A DNA stretch of 64,000 bases from Escherichia coli. GTDB taxonomy: Bacteria > Pseudomonadota > Gammaproteobacteria > Enterobacterales > Enterobacteriaceae. Shown one piece after another: positions 12,080 through 13,119 of this stretch (its first letter is position 1; every line of letters starts with the position of its first letter). The position numbers and the translations under genes are program-made. Location: NCBI RefSeq assembly GCF_013122565.1, contig NZ_CP053258.1. One strand, given 5' to 3'. The notes under the pieces are model-generated. The model was given only the letters and a program-made list of their open reading frames with translations, was not told the origin of the DNA and searched no databases.

Positions 12080-12228
12080 GGTGATTCCTCGTGATGTTGT
12101 GCTTCTTATTGTTCGGTTCGCGTTTGCGAGATTGAATTCACTATATGACAGGAAATTTATTGCGGAAATTGATATATTCACAACGTCACATTGCAATTTT
12201 TGCAACGTCAACATCGAGGGCTGCGCCA

Positions 12229-13119
12229 TTGGATTTACGCGATCTGAAAACCTTCCTGCATCTGGCGGAAAGCCGCCATTTTGGCCGCAGCGCGCGGGCG
12301 ATGCACGTTAGCCCATCCACGCTCTCACGGCAGATTCAGCGCCTGGAAGAAGATCTTGGTCAGCCGCTGTTTGTGCGCGATAACCGCACTGTGACGCTGA
12401 CTGAAGCGGGCGAAGAGCTGCGCGTTTTCGCCCAGCAAACGCTGTTGCAGTATCAGCAGTTGCGCCACACCATCGATCAGCAAGGGCCGTCGCTCTCTGG
12501 CGAATTACATATCTTCTGCTCGGTGACCGCTGCCTACAGCCATCTGCCGCCGATTCTGGATCGCTTCCGCGCGGAACACCCGTCGGTGGAGATTAAACTT
12601 ACTACTGGTGATGCGGCAGATGCGATGGAAAAGGTGGTCACTGGTGAAGCGGATCTGGCGATTGCGGGTAAACCGGAAACCTTGCCCGGCGCAGTGGCGT
12701 TTTCGATGCTGGAGAACCTGGCGGTGGTGCTGATTGCCCCCGCGCTGCCCTGCCCGGTGCGTAATCAGGTCTCGGTAGAGAAGCCGGACTGGTCAACGGT
12801 ACCGTTTATCATGGCCGATCAGGGGCCGGTGCGCCGCCGCATTGAGTTGTGGTTTCGACGCAATAAAATCAGCAACCCGATGATTTACGCCACGGTTGGC
12901 GGGCATGAAGCGATGGTATCGATGGTGGCGCTCGGCTGTGGCGTGGCGCTGTTGCCGGAAGTGGTGCTGGAAAACAGCCCCGAACCGGTGCGGAACCGCG
13001 TGATGATTTTAGAGCGCAGCGATGAAAAAACGCCGTTTGAGCTGGGCGTGTGCGTACAAAAAAAGCGGCTTCATGAGCCGCTGATTGAGGCGTTCTGGAA
13101 GATTTTGCCGAACCACTAA
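12229..13119 (+). CDS. ilvY: LysR-family transcriptional activator IlvY
   Basis: ORF 12145..13119; remembered IlvY N-terminus [52 protein letters not shown] aligns with a TTG codon at 12229 (no in-frame ATG at that position). LysR helix-turn-helix present. Confidence 0.85.

Follow-up and report, generated by a model that had tools for sequence, protein, structure and literature searches.

In Escherichia coli K-12 MG1655 (NC_000913.3), the gene ilvY (b3773; 3956927..3957820) is separated by 149 bp from the divergent ilvC, at 3957970. Its start codon is GTG. Bacteria have three standard initiators, AUG, GUG and UUG, of which the last two are weaker than the first. About 3% of E. coli genes begin with UUG, and AUG, GUG and UUG make up a high-efficiency class of initiators with 10-100% of the output of AUG (bioRxiv 10.1101/063800). 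The control region between ilvY and ilvC is treated in PMC5002191, which cites and summarises earlier work (Wek & Hatfield 1988). According to this paper the operator O1, whose sequence on the ilvC strand is ACGTTGCAAAAATTGCAATGT, has its centre at +17 relative to the ilvY transcription start and is the site at which IlvY represses its own promoter, O2 overlaps the -10 and -35 boxes of ilvY together with the -35 box of ilvC, and the centre of IR1 lies at -65 relative to the ilvC transcription start.

Here we consider the same locus in a 64,000-nucleotide stretch of E. coli DNA (the window), in which a first-pass annotation had proposed that ilvY initiates at a TTG codon at 12229 and not at the in-frame ATG at 12145. 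That proposal is supported by the annotation of related records, by the family model for IlvY, by a comparison of 80 species and by the published promoter geometry. We are highly confident that 12229-13119 is ilvY, the gene for the LysR-type activator of the divergent ilvC, and that Shine-Dalgarno-led initiation at UUG would yield a product of 296 residues.

Results

The ilvY reading frame and its start codon

The features of the locus are collected in Table 1. The TTG can be read directly in the window, at a position that has no ATG, as the first-pass annotation had said, and the codons that follow it are GAT TTA CGC GAT CTG AAA (D L R D L K). In the six-frame list of open reading frames the frame appears in a longer form of 324 codons (12145..13119), opening with the ATG that lies 28 codons (84 nt) upstream of the TTG. 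The in-frame stop that closes the frame stands 32 codons upstream of the TTG, and between the two there are one in-frame ATG, that at 12145, and two further TTGs, at -20 and -23 codons. It had also been claimed that this ATG is the only one upstream in frame, and that starting there would add 28 residues whose codons overlap the ilvC promoter region; both points hold, as 12229 - 12145 is 84 nt and the ATG sits where the ilvC and ilvY promoters overlap, within an intergenic region that again measures 149 bp. The TTG has what is expected of a UUG-type start site, namely an NTG initiator at a conserved position and a GAGG 9 nt upstream, the expected range being 5-10 nt.

Table 1. Features of the ilvY-ilvC locus and other elements of the window. 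RNA elements are Rfam matches at gathering score.
Feature	Position	Strand	Basis
ilvY initiation codon TTG (read as fMet)	12229..12231	+	sequence, RefSeq CDS starts, 80-species comparison
ilvY coding sequence, 296 codons + TAA stop	12229..13119	+	ORF list, NF008722 match
Shine-Dalgarno-like GAGGG	12216..12220	+	sequence; GAGG core 9 nt before TTG 12229
Polymorphic cluster, four substitutions (12224, 12225, 12228, 12229)	12224..12229	+	alignment, window GCGCCATTG vs K-12 GTCCCTGTG
Putative ilvY 5' untranslated region	12182..12228	+	K-12 operator positions (PMC5002191) and identity with K-12
IlvY operator O1 (ACATTGCAATTTTTGCAACGT), autorepression site	12188..12208, centre 12198	.	exact match to O1 quoted in PMC5002191
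IlvY operator O2 (TTATTGCGGAAATTGATATAT), overlaps ilvY -10/-35 and ilvC -35	12157..12177	.	reverse complement of O2 quoted in PMC5002191
Upstream in-frame ATG, rejected as start	12145..12147	+	promoter geometry, species comparison, protein and model searches
ilvC (ketol-acid reductoisomerase), divergent target gene	10604..12079, ATG at 12079	-	ORF and RefSeq annotation of homologous records
Complete rrn operon	5S 23175-23290, 23S 23385-26288, 16S 26643-28184	-	Rfam
tRNAs of rrn operon	22963-23120, 26485-26557		Rfam
StyR-44	26296-26404		Rfam
'Rev39 5'UTR' match	19453-19742		Rfam
TrxA thermometer	4300-4399		Rfam
sRNA STnc410	54549-54706		Rfam

The product of this frame is recognised by the IlvY equivalog model NCBIfam NF008722 at 513.7 bits against a cutoff of 246, with residues 1-295 covering positions 1-292 of the 293 in the model. 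Position 1 of the model aligns to residue 1 of the 296-residue product which, given the TTG start, places the helix-turn-helix at the very N-terminus with no leader extension, and other LysR-family models likewise begin at residues 1-3. The exact 296-residue protein of the window is present in public databases, named IlvY, on 123 contigs (for example ANO91727.1).

RefSeq places the start of ilvY at the homologous codon in every E. coli record that we inspected, namely K-12 and six genomes of the TTG haplotype. One of the six, E. coli E2865, is the same as the window in the start region and its ilvY CDS opens exactly at the TTG, as do those of the five others. Comparison with the annotated K-12 start, which the first-pass annotation had offered as a check, gave a divided answer: the position is the same, homologous to 12229, but the codon there is GTG instead of TTG, so that K-12 confirms where translation starts and not with which codon. 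TTG is an ordinary ilvY start, and thousands of E. coli genomes already have it annotated as such in RefSeq.

Start-site haplotypes within E. coli

In an alignment of 241 bases the window departs from K-12 at four positions only, and all four fall inside 6 bp at the start site (GCTGCGCCATTGGAT vs GCTGTCCCTGTGGAT). Among 5426 complete E. coli genomes, a 46-mer of the window haplotype centred on the start matches 3358, and the corresponding K-12 46-mer, with GTG, matches 1774. A 30-mer that matches only when TTG and its flanks are essentially exact was found in 3276 of the 5426, so that at least this number carry the TTG haplotype, and an intermediate haplotype, GCGCCTGTG, in which the upstream bases are those of the window and the start is GTG, occurs in 73. 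The identity bands from a word-11 search (610, 2953 and 1857 genomes) are in agreement with these haplotype counts. TTG is the majority allele in E. coli, at about 60%, with GTG at 34% or more and about 5% of the genomes not assigned; the K-12 reference carries the minority allele, and to know that TTG is the commonest one is what this analysis adds to the K-12 picture. There are thus three discrete haplotypes in E. coli, GCGCC-A-TTG, GTCCC-T-GTG and GCGCC-T-GTG, of which the first is separated from the third by an adjacent TG-to-AT change at -1 and +1, and the TTG form is common to E. coli and E. albertii.

There is further variation near the start among E. coli of the TTG haplotype, most of which have, relative to the window, a T>C change at 12200 inside O1 and a C>T change at 12215. 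The latter gives the frame an additional TTG, which precedes the start by 5 codons and has no Shine-Dalgarno sequence of its own. A G>A change at 12216, also found in some of these genomes, weakens the Shine-Dalgarno sequence from GAGG to AAGG.

It is tempting to see adaptation in this cluster: translation would start at the TTG, and the change from GTG, together with the neighbouring substitutions, would have retuned the level of IlvY and been maintained in E. coli and E. albertii as a polymorphism of long standing. Four substitutions within 6 bp, in 241 bp that are otherwise identical, are what might be expected from such a history, as are three discrete haplotypes at appreciable frequency with a TTG that recurs in E. 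albertii, and a Shine-Dalgarno region that itself varies among TTG haplotypes (GAGG and AAGG). However, when the 5' untranslated region and early coding sequence of seven real or hypothetical haplotypes were folded, the predicted structures were weak and differed little, with minimum free energies between -9.7 and -13.1 kcal/mol, and these seven folds gave no clear compensatory pattern and no support for explaining the four substitutions by compensatory structure. Negative autoregulation, moreover, should buffer small differences in translation, and recombination could account equally well for a TTG common to E. coli and E. albertii. On balance we regard adaptive retuning as unlikely, and it is if anything slightly less likely that a stable, possibly selected polymorphism of three haplotypes sets lineage-specific levels of IlvY and hence the inducibility of ilvC.

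Promoter geometry and comparison across Enterobacteriaceae

The divergent ilvC is present in the window with the tandem operators O1 and O2 between the two genes, as in an ilvY-ilvC unit, and the promoter and operator region is identical to that of K-12. If the K-12 positions are carried over through the secondary description in PMC5002191, transcription of ilvY would start near 12182 and that of ilvC near 12133. A scan of 11950-12350 for consensus sigma-70 promoters and terminators found none. As two characterised promoters lie in this interval, the blank result marks the scan as too strict, and speaks of its insensitivity and not of an absence of promoters; the placement of the promoters consequently rests on the literature.

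This geometry bears directly on translation from the ATG at 12145, which would give an IlvY of 324 residues, with an N-terminal extension of 28 residues and with TTG 12229 read as an internal leucine codon. ATG is the preferred initiator, and in the window, as in K-12, no stop interrupts the frame between 12145 and 12229, so that the long form is compatible with the sequence taken by itself. However, with the ilvY transcription start that follows from PMC5002191, the ATG would lie about 37 nt upstream of the 5' end of the mRNA, in the promoter (within the ilvY -35 and ilvC -10 regions) and outside the message, and the TTG would be the first in-frame initiator codon that the mRNA contains. The long form fares no better in the databases, as NF008722 aligns to it only from residue 29, residues 1-28 are unmatched by any family model, and the 324-residue protein was not found in a collection of about 15 billion public proteins.

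Comparison of 80 species-representative genomes of Enterobacteriaceae points the same way. The codon that precedes GAT TTA CGC is GTG in 65 species, ATG in 14 and TTG in one, E. albertii; a leucine or valine codon that is not an initiator (CTG, TTA or another GTN) is found there in none of the 80, which is unexpected for an internal codon. As the position is always occupied by an NTG initiator, the assignment of the start is not a chance match. In 55 of the species the frame is closed by a stop no more than 7 codons before the conserved start. Over the 15 triplets upstream of the start the column entropy is 0.80/0.95/0.98 by codon position, without the periodicity of coding sequence, whereas over codons 2-25 it is 0.055/0.042/0.616, a pattern that marks a coding sequence under purifying selection. 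Taken together, these comparative data firmly exclude the 324-residue form, and we reject a start at the upstream ATG, which we consider very improbable, on promoter geometry, upstream stops, missing periodicity and the searches of models and proteins.

The same alignment disposes of a start downstream of the TTG. Were TTG too inefficient, functional IlvY might be made from an internal codon such as the ATG of Met25 (12301-12303), which is in frame 24 codons downstream and is a stronger initiator than TTG, but residues 2-25 are 75-100% identical across the 80 species with variation mainly at third codon positions, which indicates that they are translated and under selection; they open the LysR helix-turn-helix domain, with all of the family models aligning from residue 1-3, and a Shine-Dalgarno motif stands 8-9 nt before the TTG or GTG. 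A Shine-Dalgarno core of 4-5 nt was found in 71 of the 80 species, with a spacing of 8 nt in 54 of them and of 9 nt for the GAGG of the window. On the conservation of residues 2-25, the helix-turn-helix alignment and the placement of the Shine-Dalgarno sequence, we reject a start at Met25 as having hardly any chance of being correct. Finally, with at least 3276 genomes carrying the exact TTG 30-mer, the TTG is neither a sequencing error nor a disabling lesion in a pseudogene.

One record was set apart as an outlier. This record, NZ_JAATUR010000056.1, bears the label E. coli SCPM-O-B-8794 and encodes an IlvY whose residues 2-296 are 100% identical to those of the window in the best tblastn segment. 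The region upstream of its ilvY is Citrobacter/Pseudocitrobacter-like, and its start-region 46-mer has no match among the 5426 complete E. coli genomes. The record is possibly mislabelled or recombinant.

Surroundings of the locus

The window derives from a chromosome of Escherichia type and is syntenic with the rep-ilv-rrnC region of K-12. When positions 1-25000 are set against the 5426 complete E. coli genomes, the identity is at best 98.3% over 25 kb, at 100% coverage, and the window appears to belong to an Escherichia/Shigella-type lineage that is not closely represented among them. At the far end of ilvY its stop codon, TAA (13117-13119, + strand), overlaps the TAG stop of ilvA (13116-13118, - strand). 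K-12 and E2865 have an extra 58 bp between ilvY and ilvA, containing a REP-like palindrome (GCCTGATAAGCGAAGCGCTATCAGGC), and a 297-residue IlvY that ends in PNHK; the 891-nt ilvY of the window is also found in several other E. coli genomes. The junction is the site of a REP presence/absence polymorphism between convergent genes.

On the side of ppiC away from ilvC there is a 163-codon ORF with a GTG start (9588-10079, + strand), adjoining ppiC upstream and on the same strand, in which a PemK/MazF-like toxin domain is recognised by Pfam PF02452 at 40.4 bits. By its position, the match to 'Rev39 5'UTR' in Table 1 is presumably the ilv leader region.

Discussion

The sequence, its annotation, the pattern of conservation and the identity of the operators with those of K-12 all lead us to infer that initiation takes place at UUG 12229. 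The ilvY mRNA would start near 12182, from a promoter overlapping that of ilvC; the ribosome would bind at 12216-12220, where the Shine-Dalgarno sequence reads GAGG(G), and fMet-tRNA would initiate at the UUG 9 nt downstream to give the 296-residue protein. TTG would be a derived allele at ilvY, as the ancestral state of the family is most simply taken to be GTG, which most Enterobacteriaceae have. Differences in the efficiency of initiation, if modest, would probably be buffered by the autorepression of IlvY at O1, and with such buffering the start codon might drift among NTG initiators.

The first-pass annotation had also suggested that a weak TTG start suits an autoregulator of low abundance. 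This is plausible, and most relatives do have the weak GTG, although ATG in 14 of the 80 species shows that IlvY can do without a weak start. A full-text literature search for ilvY together with TTG and GTG found no paper, the papers found that name ilvY and a start codon mention the gene in passing, and the supplements of the TRAINSPOTTER N-terminomics and INRI-seq studies contain no entry for ilvY. Beyond correct annotation the TTG start matters little, as the regulation of ilvY is that of a textbook LysR-type system.

Of the known systems with which the locus can be compared, ilvY of K-12 MG1655 (NP_418221.1) shares with it the position of the start, the promoter and operators, and the N-terminus MDLRDLKTF. 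It differs in its GTG codon and in the bases that precede it, GTCCCT in K-12 versus GCGCCA in the window, and its product has 297 residues (..PNHK) rather than 296 (ending PNH) because in K-12 the 58-bp REP-like insert stands between ilvY and ilvA. The RefSeq IlvY proteins of the TTG haplotype (for example WP_000365776.1 in E2865 and WP_000365789.1 in O145 RM9872) come from genes with the same start region as the window and differ in nothing of substance, some of the haplotype varying at 12200, 12215 and 12216, in the 5' untranslated region and Shine-Dalgarno sequence.

A more distant parallel is infC, which starts with AUU and, like ilvY, has a non-AUG initiator on the gene for an autoregulated protein. 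The autoregulation of infC works through its start codon, as IF3 discriminates against the AUU. There is no evidence of such a link between start codon and regulation in ilvY, where the autoregulation is transcriptional, through binding at O1, and where UUG, unlike AUU, is a standard and not a near-cognate initiator. As a gene whose autoregulation acts on transcription, ilvY would illustrate how a start codon can drift among the NTG initiators.
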